Positions 15,150-23,553 of a DNA stretch of 64,000 bases are shown piece after piece. The DNA comes from Thermodesulfobacteriota bacterium (GTDB lineage Bacteria > Desulfobacterota_D > UBA1144 > Nemesobacterales > UBA2774): the NCBI GenBank assembly GCA_965216785.1, contig OZ244197.1:2272001-2336000 (forward strand), in the 5' to 3' direction. Numbering within the stretch: position 1 is the first letter of the stretch; the number at the start of each line of letters is the position of its first letter. The position numbers and the translations under genes are program-made. The notes under the pieces were generated by a model. The model ran no database searches, was not told the origin of the DNA, and was given only the letters and a program-made list of their open reading frames with translations.

Positions 15150-15485
15150 CTACCCAAGCCCCTGTAGTCCTGCGTCTCGGTCAGAGTACACGTCAACAAT
15201 CGTATCAAAACCGCTTACCGCGAATATCTCGGCGACGCTGTTGTGAAGGCCGCATATTCCAAGCTTGCCGCCGCTCTCTTTCTGCTTCTTAGCTATTATC
15301 AATATAGCCCTAAGCCCGGCGCTGCTTGCGTAGGATATCTTTGAGAAATCTAGCAGGATAGAGTTTTCACCCGCGTCAATATTCTCAACGACACTGTCCT
15401 GAAACTCTTTCTCAGTCTGAGCGTCCAGACTGCCTTCGGGGGTAATCACCCTGGTTTCGCCAATTTTAGTTTGTTCGATATTCAT
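15150..15485 (-). CDS. STAS-domain anti-sigma factor antagonist
   Basis: GSLDA, LLDFSKISYASSAGLRAI phospho-Ser motif. Confidence 0.9.
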   Translation of the reverse strand: MNIEQTKIGETRVITPEGSLDAQTEKEFQDSVVENIDAGENSILLDFSKISYASSAGLRAILIIAKKQKESGGKLGICGLHNSVAEIFAVSGFDTIVDVYSDRDAGLQGLG

Positions 15486-15501
15486 TTTAGCTCCTGATTA
15501 C

Positions 15502-16155
15502 TTAGTAAGGGTGCAGCACGTACGCGTCGGCCTTTATCTCTCTCAGCCTCTTCAGCACATGCGATACGGACTGTCCTATGAGGTCGAGTTTGCTTATCTG
15601 CTCTATGCGCGGCGCGAGTTTCTTCGCCTGGTACTCTCCCACTATCTGAGGAAACAAGTCAAATGTATCGGCCAGGCTCACTAGCACCACGTCGTGAGGG
15701 CTTGGGATGTCGTCTGTGTTTAGTAGGTCTGTAATCCTCCTGCGTACTTCCTTTTCCTGCGTGTCGTCCACTGTCGGGTAGCGGCGCACTCCGATTACCC
15801 ATAGTATCTTCTTTTCCTCGACTCTCAGAATGCCCCTACTCACCAGGCTCTCGAGCGCTTTATCTCTTATCTCGGCCCCGCTCTTGGCTATTTCGGATAC
15901 CCAGTAAAAGGTGTTCTTCTCCTCCTCAGAATCCGCAATCGCGCTCAGGAATTCGTCTAGTATAACCTCACCGGTCGGGGTCGCGTCAACAACTTCCAGC
16001 TTCTCAAGGTCCGTATCAATCTTAGAGCGCAGCGCAAGGTCCATAAGCACTGCTCCCGCAAGCGCGTACTTAAACTCTTCGTAATACATGTTCTCGAATT
16101 TCCCGGTCTCATCGTCCAGAAAAAGAAGCATTATCTCTTCAGCGAATGTAAGCAA
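15502..16155 (-). CDS. GPP34/GOLPH3 family protein
   Basis: LTFAEEIMLL, LAGAVLMDLAL, LVSRGIL...RRYP signature; TTG start. Confidence 0.85.
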   Translation of the reverse strand: MLTFAEEIMLLFLDDETGKFENMYYEEFKYALAGAVLMDLALRSKIDTDLEKLEVVDATPTGEVILDEFLSAIADSEEEKNTFYWVSEIAKSGAEIRDKALESLVSRGILRVEEKKILWVIGVRRYPTVDDTQEKEVRRRITDLLNTDDIPSPHDVVLVSLADTFDLFPQIVGEYQAKKLAPRIEQISKLDLIGQSVSHVLKRLREIKADAYVLHPY

Positions 16156-16281: not shown

Positions 16282-17544
16282 TTAAGCTTGCTTTTTCCTC
16301 CTGAACCTCACTAGCAGAATCAAACCAAACACTACAGCGGCAATTAAAATCAGCTTGTTAAGCAAGTCGGGTGAAATTCCGCTTATATCCTTCCCGGCGC
16401 AGCTCGCAAGGTAAATCTCACTATTTCCCTCGGCACTCGCCTCTGACGTAAAAACAATTCTCGCCCCGTCAGCGTTTATGTCGGCGCTCGTATTGGTTTC
16501 ACTCTTACTATCTGTAATCTGTACAAATTCATCACTTGCGATGTCATAAAGAAATATTTCTATATTCCCCTCCGGGTTATTAGAGCTAAAATCCCCGGAT
16601 GACTGAAATGCGATAAGCGTACCGTCGCCGTTAATCGACGCTCCGGCGCTCCCGGCTCCGGGCTCTTTAGTTATCTGGGCCAGCTTCCTGTCCGTTGTGT
16701 CATACAGGTAGATATTAAAAACCCCGTGCTGGTTCTGGTTGTTAAGGTTCGCATCGGACTGAAATGCCGTGAACCTGCCCTCAGAGCTTATGGAAGGGGA
16801 CAGACTGCCGAGTTCTGCTCCGCTTAGAGTGATTGGTGTCACGGCTGTGCTCACAACATCAAAGAGATATATCTCAGAGTTTTTCCCGGCGTCAGGCCCG
16901 CTTATGTTCGGATTTGACTGATACACTACAAATTTCCCCGATCCGCTGATTTTTGGATGATCACTCCATCCCTCAGTCTCATCAGATATCTTCGTAGTCG
17001 TTGCGCTAAGGCTATCGTAAATAAATATATTTGCGGCCCCGGTGTTTGGGCCCATGTTCGAAGTAAATACGATCTGGCTCCCGTCAGAATTGACCGAAGG
17101 CTCAAAACTGTTCCCCTCAGTTGTCACCTGTGAATACTCGCCGCTATCAATGTCATATAAATATATTAAGTTCAGCCCATCCGGGTTATTCCCTTTAATA
17201 TCGGCTCCCGACACGAAGGCCACCTTTGTGCCGTCCCCGCTTATCGAAGGCGCTACGCTCCCCAGGTTTTCATCATCCGTTATCTGAGAAAATTTTCCTG
17301 TCAAAGTATCGTAAATAAATATCTGATACGTGCCGCCCGGGTTTACTTCGGTAATTTCAGTCTGAGATTCAAAAGCGATAAAACGTCCGTCCGCGCTGAT
17401 TGAAGGGCTCTCGCTGTCGCCCGTAAATCCCTCTGTTATATTCTCGATCTTATAGTCAGAACAGGGCAATTCGGCAAATGCGGATGAGCCAAGAATCACG
17501 AGGGCGACAACAATAGATATCACCCTTATCGCGGTACTATGCAT
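16282..17544 (-). CDS. TolB-like (PD40) beta-propeller surface protein with C-terminal anchor
   Basis: Repeated SPSISADG...IAF.S...IFIYD blades; signal peptide; C-terminal TM + RFRRKK. Confidence 0.85.
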   Translation of the reverse strand: MHSTAIRVISIVVALVILGSSAFAELPCSDYKIENITEGFTGDSESPSISADGRFIAFESQTEITEVNPGGTYQIFIYDTLTGKFSQITDDENLGSVAPSISGDGTKVAFVSGADIKGNNPDGLNLIYLYDIDSGEYSQVTTEGNSFEPSVNSDGSQIVFTSNMGPNTGAANIFIYDSLSATTTKISDETEGWSDHPKISGSGKFVVYQSNPNISGPDAGKNSEIYLFDVVSTAVTPITLSGAELGSLSPSISSEGRFTAFQSDANLNNQNQHGVFNIYLYDTTDRKLAQITKEPGAGSAGASINGDGTLIAFQSSGDFSSNNPEGNIEIFLYDIASDEFVQITDSKSETNTSADINADGARIVFTSEASAEGNSEIYLASCAGKDISGISPDLLNKLILIAAVVFGLILLVRFRRKKQA

Positions 17545-18204: not shown

Positions 18205-19293
18205 ATGAGACCTACTTGGGCCGAGATAGATTTAGGCGCGCTAAAGCACAATTTTATGCTAGTTAAGGAGCTTGTCGGCGCTGGTGTAGCCATACTTTCC
18301 GTAGTAAAGGCAGACGGTTACGGCCACGGTGCGGTAGAGGTAAGCAAAACTCTGGTTGAGGTGGGAACGGACATGCTGGGCGTTGCCACCGTCGAAGAAG
18401 CTATGGAGCTAAGGGACTACGGCATAGACGTCCCGATCATGCTCCTTGGCGGCATCAGGCCCGAAGAGGCTTTGCTCACTGTCCAGAACAACATGGTTCC
18501 CTGCCTCTTTTCCCTCGATGTCGCCCGCGCTCTCGATAAAGCCGCTTCTTCCATCGGCACGACAGCGCCCTATCATCTGAAGATCGACACCGGTATGACA
18601 AGGCTTGGCGTAAGGCCCGAAGAGCTTAACAGCTTTCTTCAAGGTTTAGCTGAGCTAAAGAATATAGAAATGGACGGGGTGCTCACCCACCTTGCCTCCG
18701 CATTTACTGAATCGACAGACTACACTGAAGCGCAGCTTAGCTGCTTCTCGCAGCACTCAGAGAAAGTGCGGGCACACGGCCACAGCCCAAGGTTCATACA
18801 TTCTGCAAACAGCGTATCTATAAAAAGGTTCCCGCACTCCCATATGGACCTTGTGCGCCCGGGAATAATGCTCTATACCCCGGCAGTTGACGGAGGGCTC
18901 GATCTAAAGCCCGTGATGAAGCTAAAATCCCGCATCATACAGCTAAATCAAGTACCAGCGGGCACTCCTGTAAGCTACGGGGGCACTTTCGTGACAAAAC
19001 GCCCGTCGGTTATAGCCACTTTGCCCATTGGCTATGCTGACGGATATTTAAGAATTCTCTCAAATCGGGCGCGCGTTTCACTTCACGGTAAAACCGCTCC
19101 CGTAACGGGCACTGTCTGCATGGATTTGACGATGATAGACGTAACAGATATCCCCGAGGCAAGTGTTGGAGACGACGTAACGATTTTCGGCGACGATCTG
19201 GTATCGGTCCAGCAGGTGGCTCAGTGGGCGGGCACCATTTCCTACGAAATACTTTCCATTACCGGGAAACGGGTTCAGAGGATATACTTCTGA
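18205..19293 (+). CDS. alr: Alanine racemase
   Basis: VVKADGYGHG PLP-Lys motif, KIDTGMTRLG, GTVCMD. Confidence 0.95.
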   Translation: MRPTWAEIDLGALKHNFMLVKELVGAGVAILSVVKADGYGHGAVEVSKTLVEVGTDMLGVATVEEAMELRDYGIDVPIMLLGGIRPEEALLTVQNNMVPCLFSLDVARALDKAASSIGTTAPYHLKIDTGMTRLGVRPEELNSFLQGLAELKNIEMDGVLTHLASAFTESTDYTEAQLSCFSQHSEKVRAHGHSPRFIHSANSVSIKRFPHSHMDLVRPGIMLYTPAVDGGLDLKPVMKLKSRIIQLNQVPAGTPVSYGGTFVTKRPSVIATLPIGYADGYLRILSNRARVSLHGKTAPVTGTVCMDLTMIDVTDIPEASVGDDVTIFGDDLVSVQQVAQWAGTISYEILSITGKRVQRIYF

Positions 19294-19360: not shown

Positions 19361-20872
19361 ATGCTCCTAAAACGCGCCCTCGGGCTCATCCTCTTCCTAC
19401 TGCTCATGTTGTCGCAACTGCCCGCGAAAAGCGCGCTCGCACTCGACACCATTAACCTCGGTCCGCTCTTTTACATGGAAAAAGACAGTGAGAAAGGGAC
19501 AAAGTCCATAGACGCGCTCGGTCCCTTTATAAGCTTTAAGAAGGGGGAGCACGAAAAGGAGTACGGGTTCCGCCCCATATTCTATAACTACAGAAACTAC
19601 GAAAAGGACAGGACCTCTTTTGATTTCCTTTACCCTCTCTCCACCCACAGGACCTTTGAGGGGGATACAAAGTTTCAGATGCTTATGTATATATTCTTCT
19701 ACCGAAGCGACCTCCGTCCTTCGGGGTTCGTTGAAAAGGATTTTACATTCTTCCCCTTCGTATTCTCAAAGCGCGCCGAAGACCCGGAGCAGAGCTACTT
19801 CGCATTATTCCCGCTTGGAGGAAAACTCAAACATAAATACGGTAAGGACGAAATAAGCTTTTTCCTTTTCCCGCTTTTCATGCAGACAAAAAAAGATGGT
19901 GTAACCAATAACAATTTCATCTGGCCGTTCATTGGCGCCTACCACGGAGAGGGCGTCAGAGGAGGGCGCCTCTGGCCCATATACGGCAAAAGGTACAAGC
20001 CCGACACATTTTCTGAATCGTTTGCTCTATGGCCGATATTTCTGAACCGCGAGATCGAGTTCATGGGCTATCAGGCGCAGATGAAAGCCGTAATGCCGTT
20101 TTACTACGGAGTGGATTTCCCGGGCCGTAGACAAAGGACTTATCTCTGGCCGTTCTTCAACACTATAGAAAATACGGAGAGGGGTTTTAAGCGCTGGGAC
20201 ATGCCGTGGTTCTTTGTCAGTATTAGTAGGGGCAGCGTTCACACAAACAGGTTTTGGCCCCTTTACTCAAAGCGAAGGGAAAAGGATTACGAGACCGGTT
20301 TTTTACTGTGGCCGCTGTATCAGTACAAGTTCGCGGACCTTGAAACCTACCGCCGGGAAAGGCGCACGTTCGTGCTATTTCTCTATAAAGATATAAAAGA
20401 CAAGCCCATCAAGGAGGGCGGGAAGAGCGGGAGAGCCATTCACTTCTGGCCGCTATTCAGCTACAAGAGCAAGACAGACGGCCCGGCGCATTTTCACCTC
20501 ATTTCCCCGCTCGAGACTTTCCTTCCGGAAAACCCGCCAAGAGAGCGCAACTGGGCCCCGTTCTGGCGCATATTCAACTGGGAGCGTGATGAAGAGGGTA
20601 ACGAATTCTCCTCTTTTCTTTGGAATACGCTCAGGACGGAGCATACGAAAGAGAGCACAAAGATCGAGCTAAGGCCCATTATTCCGCTCATATCCATAGA
20701 GAGCGGCGCGGCGCGCTCAAACTTCAGTTTACTTGGAGGATTTTTGGGTTACCGCCGTAATAATTCGACTAAAACATTAAGGTTTCTATATATTCCGGTT
20801 AATATTTCTGGTGGAGGCTCGCCCCCAGCAAACGCGAGCACAGCCGAAACAATGATACTGGGAGACGTCTGA
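19361..20872 (+). CDS. Secreted aromatic-Pro repeat protein of unknown function, adjacent to mlaEFD
   Basis: Signal peptide; about 20 LWP/FFP/LFP-type motifs; 3 nt gap to mlaE. Confidence 0.75.
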   Translation: MLLKRALGLILFLLLMLSQLPAKSALALDTINLGPLFYMEKDSEKGTKSIDALGPFISFKKGEHEKEYGFRPIFYNYRNYEKDRTSFDFLYPLSTHRTFEGDTKFQMLMYIFFYRSDLRPSGFVEKDFTFFPFVFSKRAEDPEQSYFALFPLGGKLKHKYGKDEISFFLFPLFMQTKKDGVTNNNFIWPFIGAYHGEGVRGGRLWPIYGKRYKPDTFSESFALWPIFLNREIEFMGYQAQMKAVMPFYYGVDFPGRRQRTYLWPFFNTIENTERGFKRWDMPWFFVSISRGSVHTNRFWPLYSKRREKDYETGFLLWPLYQYKFADLETYRRERRTFVLFLYKDIKDKPIKEGGKSGRAIHFWPLFSYKSKTDGPAHFHLISPLETFLPENPPRERNWAPFWRIFNWERDEEGNEFSSFLWNTLRTEHTKESTKIELRPIIPLISIESGAARSNFSLLGGFLGYRRNNSTKTLRFLYIPVNISGGGSPPANASTAETMILGDV

Positions 20873-20875
20873 GCA

Positions 20876-21643
20876 ATGAACACTGTAACGCACTTTTTTA
20901 AGGTCACCGGCGGGCTCGTTGGACTCCTTGTTGAGACCCTGTACTGGTGCAAGTCCGCTTTGTCCAACAGCGACAAGGTGCTGCAGCAGCTCCTCGTAAT
21001 CGGCTATCAGACACTTCCCGTAGGCGCTCTCATAGCGCTATTCTCAGGCGGGGTGCTGGCGCTACAGGCGGGTCCCGCGCTTGCGCAGTTCGGCGTGGAA
21101 GAAAACGTCGGAGGTCTCGTAGGTCTCTCAATCGTAAAAGAAATAGGCCCCGTGATGGCCGCTATACTTGTCGCCGGCAGGGTAGGCTCGGCCATGACTG
21201 CCGAGATATCCTCCATGAGCGTCTACGAGGAGATCGACGCACTTAAGACGATGGATATCAACCCTATCCGTTACCTCGTCATGCCGAGGTTTATAGCAAC
21301 GGTAATTGCTCTTCCCATACTCGTAATCTATATGGACGTCATAGGCTGGTTCGGGGGCGCGCTGGTATCCGCCGTAAACCCGGAAGTTAAGCTGTCTGTA
21401 GATATTTATTACCACAATTTGGCCCAGTTCGTAGATTTCACAGCCGTTGTGAACGGGCTTGTTAAAGCCATGATTTTCGGCGTTATAATCTCCATAGTCT
21501 GCTGCTACGTGGGGCTGAAGACCACAGGCGGCCCAAGGGAGATAGGGCGCTCGGTTACAAAAGCTGTAGTGCTCTCGTTTGTACTGGTTTTGGTGTTCGA
21601 TTACTACGTCACCAGGGTTTTGTTATTCTTAAATTTAGATTAG
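20876..21643 (+). CDS. mlaE: MlaE family ABC permease
   Basis: EIGPVMAAILVAGRVGSAMTAEI...EEIDAL signature. Confidence 0.92.
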   Translation: MNTVTHFFKVTGGLVGLLVETLYWCKSALSNSDKVLQQLLVIGYQTLPVGALIALFSGGVLALQAGPALAQFGVEENVGGLVGLSIVKEIGPVMAAILVAGRVGSAMTAEISSMSVYEEIDALKTMDINPIRYLVMPRFIATVIALPILVIYMDVIGWFGGALVSAVNPEVKLSVDIYYHNLAQFVDFTAVVNGLVKAMIFGVIISIVCCYVGLKTTGGPREIGRSVTKAVVLSFVLVLVFDYYVTRVLLFLNLD

Positions 21644-21658
21644 ACTATTTGATGGATT

Positions 21659-22495
21659 ATGGAGCGTAAACTGGATAACGAAAACGCAGCTAACGGAAGG
21701 CTCGGAAGCGTACTCGAGGGCAGGGAAAAATGCACCGGCAGCGTGCTTTTGGATTACCTTAAATGCGCCCCGGCGGGAGTGTGCATTAAAGACCTCCGCA
21801 GGTCTTTCGGCAGCCACTTGGTATTAAAAGGGATAAACCTAGACATTGACCCGGGGGAGATTGTTGTGATCCTGGGCAAGAGCGGCGCCGGCAAGAGCGT
21901 GCTGTTGCGCCACATCATCGGGCTTGAGGACCCGGATGCCGGCTCCATCAAAGTCGCGGGCGAAGACATACACGAGCCGGATTTCAGCAAGCACCACGTG
22001 CTGGCTATGGTGTTTCAGTCCTCAGCCCTATTCAATTCGCTTACAGTGGGGGAAAACGTAGGGCTTTATCTAAGGGAGCACAAGGTCATTGATGACGACA
22101 AACGAATAAACGAAATAGTCTCAAGCGCGCTCGAGCTCGTCGGGCTTGGGGGAAAAGAAGAAGTCATGCCCTCTGTCCTCTCAGGAGGAATGAAGCGCAG
22201 GGTCGCTACCGCGAGAGCGCTAGTCATGAATCCCGACATCATCCTTTTCGATGAGCCCACTTCAGGGCTCGATCCCATGATGACGCGCACCATAGGCGAT
22301 CTTATCTGCGATCTGAAATCCCAGGTGGAAATAACGCAAATAGTCGTTACGCACGACATAGACCTTGCTTTCTACGTAGCGGACAAGATTGCTGTCCTTA
22401 GCGAGGGCAGAATACTCCAGGTCGGTAGTTCGGATGAAATACGCAATTCAAGGGACGCGGCGGTACGGGAGTTTATCGCTCCACAGTTCGATTGA
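21659..22495 (+). CDS. mlaF: MlaF family ABC ATPase
   Basis: GKSGAGKS, LSGGMKRR, DEPTSGLDP; exact start uncertain. Confidence 0.9.
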   Translation: MERKLDNENAANGRLGSVLEGREKCTGSVLLDYLKCAPAGVCIKDLRRSFGSHLVLKGINLDIDPGEIVVILGKSGAGKSVLLRHIIGLEDPDAGSIKVAGEDIHEPDFSKHHVLAMVFQSSALFNSLTVGENVGLYLREHKVIDDDKRINEIVSSALELVGLGGKEEVMPSVLSGGMKRRVATARALVMNPDIILFDEPTSGLDPMMTRTIGDLICDLKSQVEITQIVVTHDIDLAFYVADKIAVLSEGRILQVGSSDEIRNSRDAAVREFIAPQFD

Positions 22496-22560
22496 TGGTT
22501 CGAGCAGTTAGCCCGGAGGGCTTAATAGTTATTACTTACAAACTTAAGGAGGCATATTGA

Positions 22561-23553
22561 ATGGGCGCTCAGGTAAAAGTCGGAATATTTTTCGTAGTCG
22601 GTCTTGTCATACTCCTTGCGGTGTTTGACTTTGTGGGCGACGTGCCTTTCTTTAAAAACGAGATCAAGGTGAAAACGTACTTTAACTCCGTTGCCGAGCT
22701 TAGCGAAGGGGCCATGGTAAAGCTCGAGGGCTTTGAGATCGGAAGGGTTAAGAGCGTTAAAATCGCGGACAGAAATATTGAAGTCGTGATGAATATTGAA
22801 AAGGACAGCGGCGTGCGCGCGGATTCCGAAGCGAGCATCCGTCTTACGTCACTACTTGGAGCAAGCTATATTAATCTCACTTTCGGCACCGCCGACAGCC
22901 CTCTCGCGCAGGACGGAGCGGTGCTCCCGAGCGTTGAGCCTGCCGACATAAACGACATAATGGTAAAGGTCGATTCCGCCGTGAGCTCTTTGGATAACGC
23001 CTTGGGCGGGCTGGATATATTCGGCGATAATAAAGAGCAGGTCTCAAGCATTGTCAAAAACCTCGATCTACTTCTTTCAGGGCTCGAAAGCGGGGAGGGC
23101 ACTCTCGGTAAGCTTTTTAAAGACGACTCTCTGTACTCTGACGTTACCGGGGCGTTCGCCAATATCAACGAAATCACAGACTCCCTTAAAGAAGGCAAAG
23201 GCACTCTCGGGAAACTTCTATACGACGATTCGCTCTACAACGACACAAAAACGGCGCTTTCAAATTTCGGCAGTCTTACAGAGAAGCTAAACACCTCAAA
23301 CGGCACCATCGGCAAGCTGTTAAACGACGATACTCTGTATAACGAAGCCACAGGGGCGGCCACAAAGCTAAACCAGATACTTGAGAAAATAAACTCCGGC
23401 CAGGGCACCCTGGGCCAGCTCGTAAACGACGACTCCCTTTATCTTGACGCTAAGGATACGCTCCTTAAAGTGGACAAGAGCATCGACACCCTGGACGATC
23501 TTGCGCCTCTTGGAGTATTCGGAACGGCGCTTGGGGTAGTTACACTCTTCTAA
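22561..23553 (+). CDS. mlaD: MlaD/MCE protein with long repetitive helical extension
   Basis: N-terminal TM, MCE domain, four G/SxGT(L/I)GxLxxDDxLY repeats at 34-aa period. Confidence 0.88.
   Translation: MGAQVKVGIFFVVGLVILLAVFDFVGDVPFFKNEIKVKTYFNSVAELSEGAMVKLEGFEIGRVKSVKIADRNIEVVMNIEKDSGVRADSEASIRLTSLLGASYINLTFGTADSPLAQDGAVLPSVEPADINDIMVKVDSAVSSLDNALGGLDIFGDNKEQVSSIVKNLDLLLSGLESGEGTLGKLFKDDSLYSDVTGAFANINEITDSLKEGKGTLGKLLYDDSLYNDTKTALSNFGSLTEKLNTSNGTIGKLLNDDTLYNEATGAATKLNQILEKINSGQGTLGQLVNDDSLYLDAKDTLLKVDKSIDTLDDLAPLGVFGTALGVVTLF

Follow-up and report, generated by a model that had tools for sequence, protein, structure and literature searches.

An exported aromatic-proline repeat protein family co-inherited with long-MlaD MlaEFD transporters: a likely partner and candidate outer-membrane-side dock

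We analyzed a 64,000-nucleotide stretch of the Thermodesulfobacteriota bacterium assembly GCA_965216785.1 (contig OZ244197.1, positions 2,272,001 to 2,336,000 of the forward strand; hereafter, the window), in which an exported repeat protein of 503 amino acids (aa) is encoded directly before mlaE, mlaF, and mlaD. This protein, given the working name REP (window open reading frame (ORF) 19361-20872), had been proposed in an initial annotation of the window to be the outer-membrane or periplasmic partner of an MlaEFD system of the MCE class. The co-occurrence comparison suggested there tied the REP family to MlaEFD across three phyla, in which it tracks one long-MlaD clade almost without exception. 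A functional partnership of REP with the long-MlaD MlaEFD transporter is very likely, and REP belongs to a real and widespread accessory family, so far undescribed, within a known class of transporters. On the basis of the linkage to mlaEFD, the joint loss with these genes, a tail conserved in MlaD, and the alternating edges of REP, we favor, with some reserve, the reading that REP is a co-inherited partner of this transporter and likely its outer-membrane-side dock.

REP and mlaEFD are inherited and lost together

REP was detected in 76 of the 120 genomes of the window's phylum. The order alr-REP-mlaE-mlaF was observed in all loci fetched from these 76 genomes (40/40), and mlaD came next in 39 of the 40, the remaining locus stopping at a contig edge. 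An orthologous mlaE, set apart by an expectation value (E) of 7e-74 or better from paralogues at 6e-53 or worse, was present in 74/76 REP-positive and 0/44 REP-negative genomes; the two misses were fragmented assemblies. As for the genomes without REP, alr runs directly into the MaoC gene, which follows mlaD in the window, in the single-contig, 99% complete genome G090, and four members of a 36-genome genus have alr joined to the D-Tyr-tRNA deacylase gene, which follows mlaD in relatives. Since alr is joined to the downstream genes in two lineages, the whole REP-mlaE-mlaF-mlaD block was lost on at least two occasions. The alr gene itself was retained where REP-mlaEFD had been deleted; it lies upstream of REP in 40/40 loci of the phylum and in 0/39 loci outside it.

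These 39 outside loci (38 deltaproteobacterial-type, mostly Desulfuromonadales, and one from Verrucomicrobiia) carried mlaE directly after REP in 36, and the other three ended at contig edges. Two outside samples of 131 genomes each were also analyzed. The first, from the phylum of the Verrucomicrobiia record, contained full-length REP in 59 genomes (any match in 78), and the REP-E-F-D order was found in 19 of 20 fetched loci. In the second, from the phylum of the Geoalkalibacter record, REP was present in 54 genomes and adjacent to mla genes in 15 of 20 fetched loci, directly after mlaD in 13; for the other five, mlaD was 4.8 kb away in one and unlinked in four. REP loci thus occur in two gene orders, with REP either before mlaE or after mlaD.

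Several loci showed further features. At L127, L133, L146, L170, and L145, mlaF (or mlaE and mlaF) was missing, and mlaD was still beside REP or mlaE; therefore, of all the parts, the ATPase gene has most often been relocated. In genomes with unlinked REP, the tail-type mlaEFD (see below) adjoins fabZ-, lpxA-, and lpxI-type genes (G318 L168:50-5219, by Pfam scan; G280 L169). In one Verrucomicrobiia locus, the gene immediately upstream of REP encoded an MMPL transporter of 922 aa (L101:3980-6748), and two ORFs near alr in genome G052 (L165:1211-3674) presumably resemble a DarT/ADP-ribosylhydrolase-type toxin-antitoxin pair. In G319, what looked like an 851-aa fusion of MlaD and REP was dismissed as a scaffold N-gap artefact, and none of 57 longer REP homologues contained an MlaE, MlaF, or MlaD part.

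A hydrophobic MlaD tail accompanies REP

Next, the MlaD proteins were compared. The window MlaD consists of an N-terminal membrane anchor, an MCE domain (35-109), four GxGTLGKL-type repeats, and a hydrophobic C-terminal tail; it ends ~40 residues past the last repeat, in a 15-aa hydrophobic tail. Because MlaD is itself of the long bridge type, REP need not span the periplasm, a point missed in the initial annotation. REP-linked MlaDs ranged from ~218 to 370 aa with 1-5 such repeats, and all of their distinct C-termini (104/104) showed Pro plus a hydrophobic stretch. The hydropathy of the last 14 residues had a mean of 1.69 and a minimum of 1.14 (104/104), and the tail Pro was invariant in 96/96 aligned C-termini. 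Thus, REP length and the MlaD tail stay fixed while MlaD length varies. The stand-alone mlaD of the source genome, of the type kept by REP-less lineages, encodes a protein without the hydrophobic tail; the gene beside it is one that we take to be purH-like.

A profile of tail-type MlaD was made from the last 75 residues, with the match required to run through the tail. It detected tail-type MlaD in 59/59 REP-positive and 0/72 REP-less genomes of the first outside sample, and in 51/54 REP-positive (three misses at contig ends) and 0/77 REP-less genomes of the second. The pairing held even where 0.6-1.2 Mb of a single contig separated the REP and MlaD genes (G280, G318, G349).

MlaA, MlaC, and other MCE sets

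The source genome (one contig, 92% complete) gave no match to MlaA (PF04333) or MlaC (PF05494), and each was found in 0/120 genomes of the phylum, including the 44 without REP. Because both are missing phylum-wide, with or without REP, this absence is hardly informative about REP. In the second outside sample, MlaA was present in 7/54 REP genomes versus 51/77 REP-less genomes, an exclusion that is strong, incomplete, and confounded by lineage. The anti-correlation with mlaA and mlaC anticipated in the initial annotation is not universal: among five REP genomes checked, MlaA was found in four and MlaC in three, and some REP genomes keep both. Two of five MlaA loci fetched were beside a separate short-MlaD operon and a third was beside MlaC. 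MlaA domains were also observed inside ORFs of 570-680 aa (L103:1-3210; L105:1345-3369), one of which was beside MlaC and an MMPL-like gene.

The source genome carries two more MCE sets besides REP-mlaEFD, one operon and one dispersed. The dispersed set comprises the stand-alone, long, tail-less mlaD (L005:7030-8112, contig ~821,000; also L161:5937-7261, L159:5346-11772, L047-L062) together with an mlaE at another site, which follows the gene of a small lipoprotein without a Pfam match. In the 36-genome genus from which REP was lost, no other MCE set was found. The third operon (L006:6350-9904, contig ~2,510,000) encodes an STAS-MlaE fusion, MlaF, a 321-aa MlaD, and, at the position that PqiC would take, a lipoprotein of 213 aa; the label "PqiC-like" for this lipoprotein was rejected, as it had no Pfam support.

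Sequence and predicted fold of REP

The N-terminus of REP was hydrophobic (best 12-residue Kyte-Doolittle window, 3.1), and no 19-residue window of the mature protein exceeded 1.0 on the same scale. No Cys was found in the whole 503-aa sequence, so there is no Cys to be lipidated, unlike in PqiC/PA3214-like lipoproteins. The repeat array described in the initial annotation is real: a strict hydrophobic-x-Pro-hydrophobic-hydrophobic pattern occurred 15 times, whereas 10,000 shuffles of the same composition gave 1.2 on average and never more than 7, and the eight motifs named there were all located, at residues 33, 70, 130, 149, 187, 204, 262, and 298. A loose pattern gave 19 motifs, 17-21 aa apart or at near-multiples of this (36-46), with one overlapping pair 3 aa apart. 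However, the count of about 20 needed adjustment, as the structural model contained 23 hydrophobic connectors including degenerate copies.

REP had no Pfam or NCBIfam family when both libraries were scanned; the single library match, GntA at E 0.079, was dismissed as noise. A PDB sequence search gave no match at E <=10, and the ESM Atlas returned unnamed clusters only (one auto-named GWxTD), at a recognition value under the reliable range.

The AlphaFold2 model of REP, built on one alignment of 112 sequences, is a predicted single-layer beta-meander of 46 short strands (predicted local distance difference test (pLDDT), 87.9; predicted template-modeling (TM) score, 0.71), that is, a sheet of ~23 hairpins. 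In this model, 23 aromatic-Pro turns lie along one edge and 22 charged turns along the other. The two connector types alternate strictly across 95 sequences, the 23 being 60% hydrophobic and 8% charged, and the 22 being 15% and 43%, respectively. Couplings from 366 sequences spanned both turn kinds (E164-K177, D252-R259, S58-G69) and connected hydrophobic tips to neighboring tips (I207-F247, F247-F285), and these intra-chain couplings fit a single-layer meander with one aromatic ridge. The hydrophobic residues form runs of 5-7 round the turns, on both faces, and do not alternate on one sheet face. Of the elongated sheet with an aromatic edge or groove envisaged initially, the model supports the continuous aromatic edge; a lipid groove is less likely, the hydrophobic residues clustering at the hairpin tips.

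Structure prediction and a Foldseek comparison, also suggested initially, revealed no close known fold, with a TM score of at most 0.17. In a VIA fold search, the best matches had Z 9.2 and 10.3 at a root-mean-square deviation (rmsd) of 11-15. The individual matches were TCP10 (CPAP) (Z 10.3, rmsd 14.7, 166 aligned), OspA (Z 8.8, rmsd 8.3, 216 aligned), the ApoB-100 beta-belt (Z 8.0, rmsd 4.7, 219 residues), and, weakly and partially, LptC (Z 6.3, rmsd 5.9, 99 aligned). No PqiC-, MlaA-, or AsmA-type chains were among the fold matches listed, which does not imply their exclusion.

The REP family

REP homologues numbered 670 at 90% clustering. At 50% identity, the family comprised 2,399 clusters, 855 of them with E up to 1e-30. 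The close named homologues were from Candidatus Dadabacteria and "Thermodesulfobacteriota" genomes, and a cultured carrier, Desulfuromonas versatilis (DESUT3_20330), was among the matches. The family is colinear, with prolines 88-100% conserved over 170 distant sequences, and the matched domain measured 408-487 aa in 93/95 loci, the exceptions being one truncated and one divergent. A strong N-terminal hydrophobic stretch was present in 213/243 full-length relatives. No PF03886 (ABC_trans_aux) match was obtained for REP or among 95 family members.

No description of the family was found in the literature searched, which covered main texts, with most subscription journals outside coverage; the supplements of PMC5561183 and PMC10665443, which lay outside that search, could list REP neighborhoods. 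Because REP has no Pfam domain, Pfam-based neighborhood surveys such as that in PMC5561183 would be blind to it.

Predicted contact of REP with the MlaD tail

Complex prediction was performed with REP and four copies of MlaD residues 256-330, whereas the initial annotation had suggested hexameric MlaD. The score was weak, at 0.39 (runs 0.39, 0.45, and 0.26) compared to 0.01 for the best of three controls; at least 71% of contacts were common to the runs, and the partner pLDDT was at least 71. Of solved pairs, 116/157 reach the mark of the complex tool, as do 2/215 mismatched pairs; with a score of 0.60 or below, however, no more than 18/157 solved pairs reach it, along with both mismatches. 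The predicted complex may thus add a small increment, as weak support, to a prior made likely by genetics. A search for residue couplings linking REP with the C-terminus of MlaD was uninformative: the top z of 7.3, at ~86 effective sequences, was under 7 of 8 scrambled pairings (6.5-10.2).

Proposed role of REP and alternatives

The location, binding, and substrate of REP are what we infer from the above. REP would be positioned at the outer membrane, docking the tip of the long MlaD needle and doing the job of PqiC with another fold. An outer-membrane site is suggested because REP is constant as needle length varies and often occupies the slot of a PqiC-like lipoprotein. Docking of the MlaD tail on REP is proposed by analogy with PA3213-PA3214, in which, according to PMC13631591, the C-terminal peptide of the MCE protein binds an outer-membrane ring and sets specificity. 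Furthermore, a run of 5-7 hydrophobic residues at a turn is too short to cross a bilayer, which suggests that the aromatic-Pro tips of REP enter a single leaflet. A more detailed proposal, which we put forward only tentatively and would sooner doubt than accept, is that REP forms a fixed-length single-chain belt round six MlaD tails, with 23 tips in one leaflet where lipid would be extracted or delivered, and that it replaces MlaA plus PqiC in several under-studied phyla.

Several observations weigh against the outer-membrane dock or its supporting counts. Among the genomes matched by the tail profile, 20/59 and 17/51 helped to build it (39/59 and 34/51 did not), and the profile recognizes an MlaD clade, not the tail alone. 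Related genomes in the co-occurrence counts are not independent. A lipobox-like Cys was found in only 21/243 full-length relatives, and no conserved C-terminal aromatic signal was observed in the family, with F last in 12, W in 3, and Y in 1 of 170 sequences. No N-to-C coupling, which would indicate ring closure, was found in REP, and the fold matches to its model imply different curvatures, so that they do not tell an open sheet from a ring. In addition, the longer repeat relatives were beside MCE genes in 0/12 loci; therefore, the hairpin-repeat fold also serves other roles. Separately, an integral outer-membrane beta-barrel is not supported for REP, given the lack of that C-terminal sorting signal in the family and the model strands of 4-8 residues.

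Alternatively, REP may partner the transporter at the outer leaflet of the inner membrane, or may act as a chaperone shielding the MlaD tails during needle assembly, and the tails would then enter the outer membrane unaided. This arrangement fits all co-occurrence data equally well. Most REPs have a plain signal peptide with neither a lipid anchor nor a recognizable outer-membrane sorting signal, and the MlaD tail, by its mean hydropathy, is hydrophobic enough to enter a membrane alone. Nevertheless, we consider it unlikely, as a REP and a tail of fixed size, set against MlaDs of varying length, would suit a component at the distal end of the needle, and a chaperone has no obvious need for 23 membrane-type tips.

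It is improbable that REP is a periplasmic lipid conduit akin to the AsmA-like or Lpt bridges, in which the sheet would coil and the aromatic edge would line a continuous tube or groove. REP is long, all-beta, and exported, its tips couple one and two repeats away as in a continuous ridge, and the partial LptC match points in the same direction. However, its hydrophobic residues occur in short runs round turns on both faces and lack the one-face alternation, MlaD is already of the long type, and the best fold matches were generic meanders (TCP10, MORN, and OspA).

An outward-facing REP, in or on the outer membrane and capturing an external hydrophobic substrate for import, is distinctly improbable. 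Import of sterols or fatty acids is reported for some MCE systems, and Leptospira LA_1737-family proteins are among the longer relatives. However, REP is single-copy and kept even in ~1-Mb genomes with no other MCE system found, no catabolic genes are conserved near it, and the cognate mlaEFD of G318 adjoins the fabZ/lpxA/lpxI-type genes mentioned above. Finally, that REP is a hitch-hiking neighbor with an unrelated function is largely excluded: although 6/40 loci of the two outside samples were not adjacent to mla genes and long paralogues are unlinked to them, the linkage survives gene-order change, genomes with unlinked REP still carry tail-type MlaD, and the block was co-deleted twice.

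Features of the locus

The coordinates are collected in Table 1. In line with the initial annotation, REP stops 3 nt before the mlaE ATG (20876), mlaE, mlaF, and mlaD follow, and inspection of the ORFs revealed no mlaA, mlaB, or mlaC gene at the locus. The products of the three mla genes matched PF02405, PF00005, and PF02470 in tandem. The mlaF product scored 173 bits against NF008809 (MlaF), under the cut-off of 441, so its name rests on gene context. From family membership, the window MlaEFD would form a hexameric MCE ring and transport lipids.

Table 1. REP, the mlaEFD genes, and the adjoining alr in the window
Feature	Position	Strand	Evidence or remark
alr (alanine racemase)	18205..19293	+	Upstream neighbor, outside the system
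REP, exported aromatic-Pro beta-hairpin repeat protein	19361..20872	+	503-aa ORF
REP predicted signal peptide	~residues 1-27	+	
REP 46-strand meander	residues 30-484	+	Predicted model
REP tail	residues 485-503	+	Low confidence in model
mlaE, permease, 255 aa	20876..21643	+	PF02405 E 5.4e-74; TIGR00056 218.8 bits (cut-off 212.2)
mlaF, ABC ATPase, 278 aa	21659..22495	+	PF00005 E 1.6e-34
mlaD, long, 330 aa	22561..23553	+	PF02470 E 9e-17
MlaD C-terminal tail, residues 316-330, candidate docking element	23506..23550	+	Pro, then hydrophobic Gly-containing stretch

Elsewhere in the window, 15150-16155 (-) contains a GPP34-family gene (PF05719) and then a small ORF, which we take to be a STAS-like anti-sigma-antagonist. 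At 16282-17544 (-), a secreted PD40/TolB-like propeller has a C-terminal hydrophobic helix and basic tail, like a sorting anchor. An Rfam scan of the 64-kb window gave no match, and a promoter and terminator scan gave results near chance.

Relation to known systems

In its predicted fold, REP resembles TCP10, MORN repeats, OspA, and the ApoB-100 belt, which are also antiparallel single-layer sheets (Z 8-10); these matches are partial (rmsd 5-15, identity <=11%) and reflect a generic arrangement. To our knowledge, none of these meanders has a membrane-type aromatic-Pro edge. The Leptospira LA_1737 family (NCBIfam NF047486) has aromatic-Pro hairpin repeats of the REP kind. Two of its proteins, with 36 and 24 motifs, were matched by the REP profile (E 2.6e-45 and 3e-27). 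LA_1737 proteins are 1,500-1,900 aa with a variable repeat number, and REP is much shorter. The window REP had no match to NF047486 (cut-off 60 bits), 12/95 members of the REP family matched weakly (best E 1.4e-5), and two REP members scored singly gave 16-18 bits compared to 262-267 for Leptospira members. The longer repeat relatives (430-1,900 aa; L147-L158, P0282-P0338) include Leptospira LA_1737, Bacteroidota, and Spirochaetae proteins; many are lipoproteins, and several have an aromatic last residue. If the proposed role of REP is true, it would give a first function to a broad superfamily of hairpin-repeat proteins that includes Leptospira LA_1737.

The E. coli MlaFEDB-MlaC-MlaA system shares the MlaE/MlaF/MlaD core. 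However, the REP operon is without MlaA, MlaB (STAS), and MlaC, and its MlaD is not short, having 330 aa and four repeats. Like MlaA, REP may handle lipids in a single leaflet of the outer membrane (for the role of MlaA, PMC13631591), although the two have no common sequence family.

Similarly, Veillonella parvula has an MlaEFD core without MlaA, MlaB, or MlaC, and its long helical MlaD was proposed to bridge the periplasm (PMC10665443). That MlaD ends in its own ten-stranded beta-barrel (PMC10665443), in contrast to the window MlaD, which has no barrel and is paired with a separate protein; therefore, the REP system is not of the Veillonella type. PMC10665443 also notes that the majority of long MlaDs have no barrel, indicates that most bacteria have a long barrel-less MlaD with no MlaA or MlaC, treats the contact of the needle with the outer membrane as an open question, and allows for "as yet unidentified proteins". 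A deletable 15-residue MlaD tail makes this contact directly testable.

The REP system also resembles P. aeruginosa PA3211-PA3214 and E. coli PqiABC, whose operons likewise add a single gene for an exported accessory protein to those for an ABC permease, an ATPase, and a long MCE protein. The DUF330/PqiC gene slot is directly after the MCE gene according to PMC5561183, and in 13 loci REP, directly after mlaD, is in this slot. However, PqiC/PA3214 is a ~200-aa lipoprotein forming an octameric ring, whereas REP is a ~460-aa single-chain, all-beta repeat protein and is mostly unlipidated. Since it is without PF03886 and Cys and has a different predicted fold, REP is not a PqiC member. The MCE C-terminal peptide, which is a specificity element in PA3211-PA3214/PqiABC (PMC13631591), is an invariant element in REP systems.

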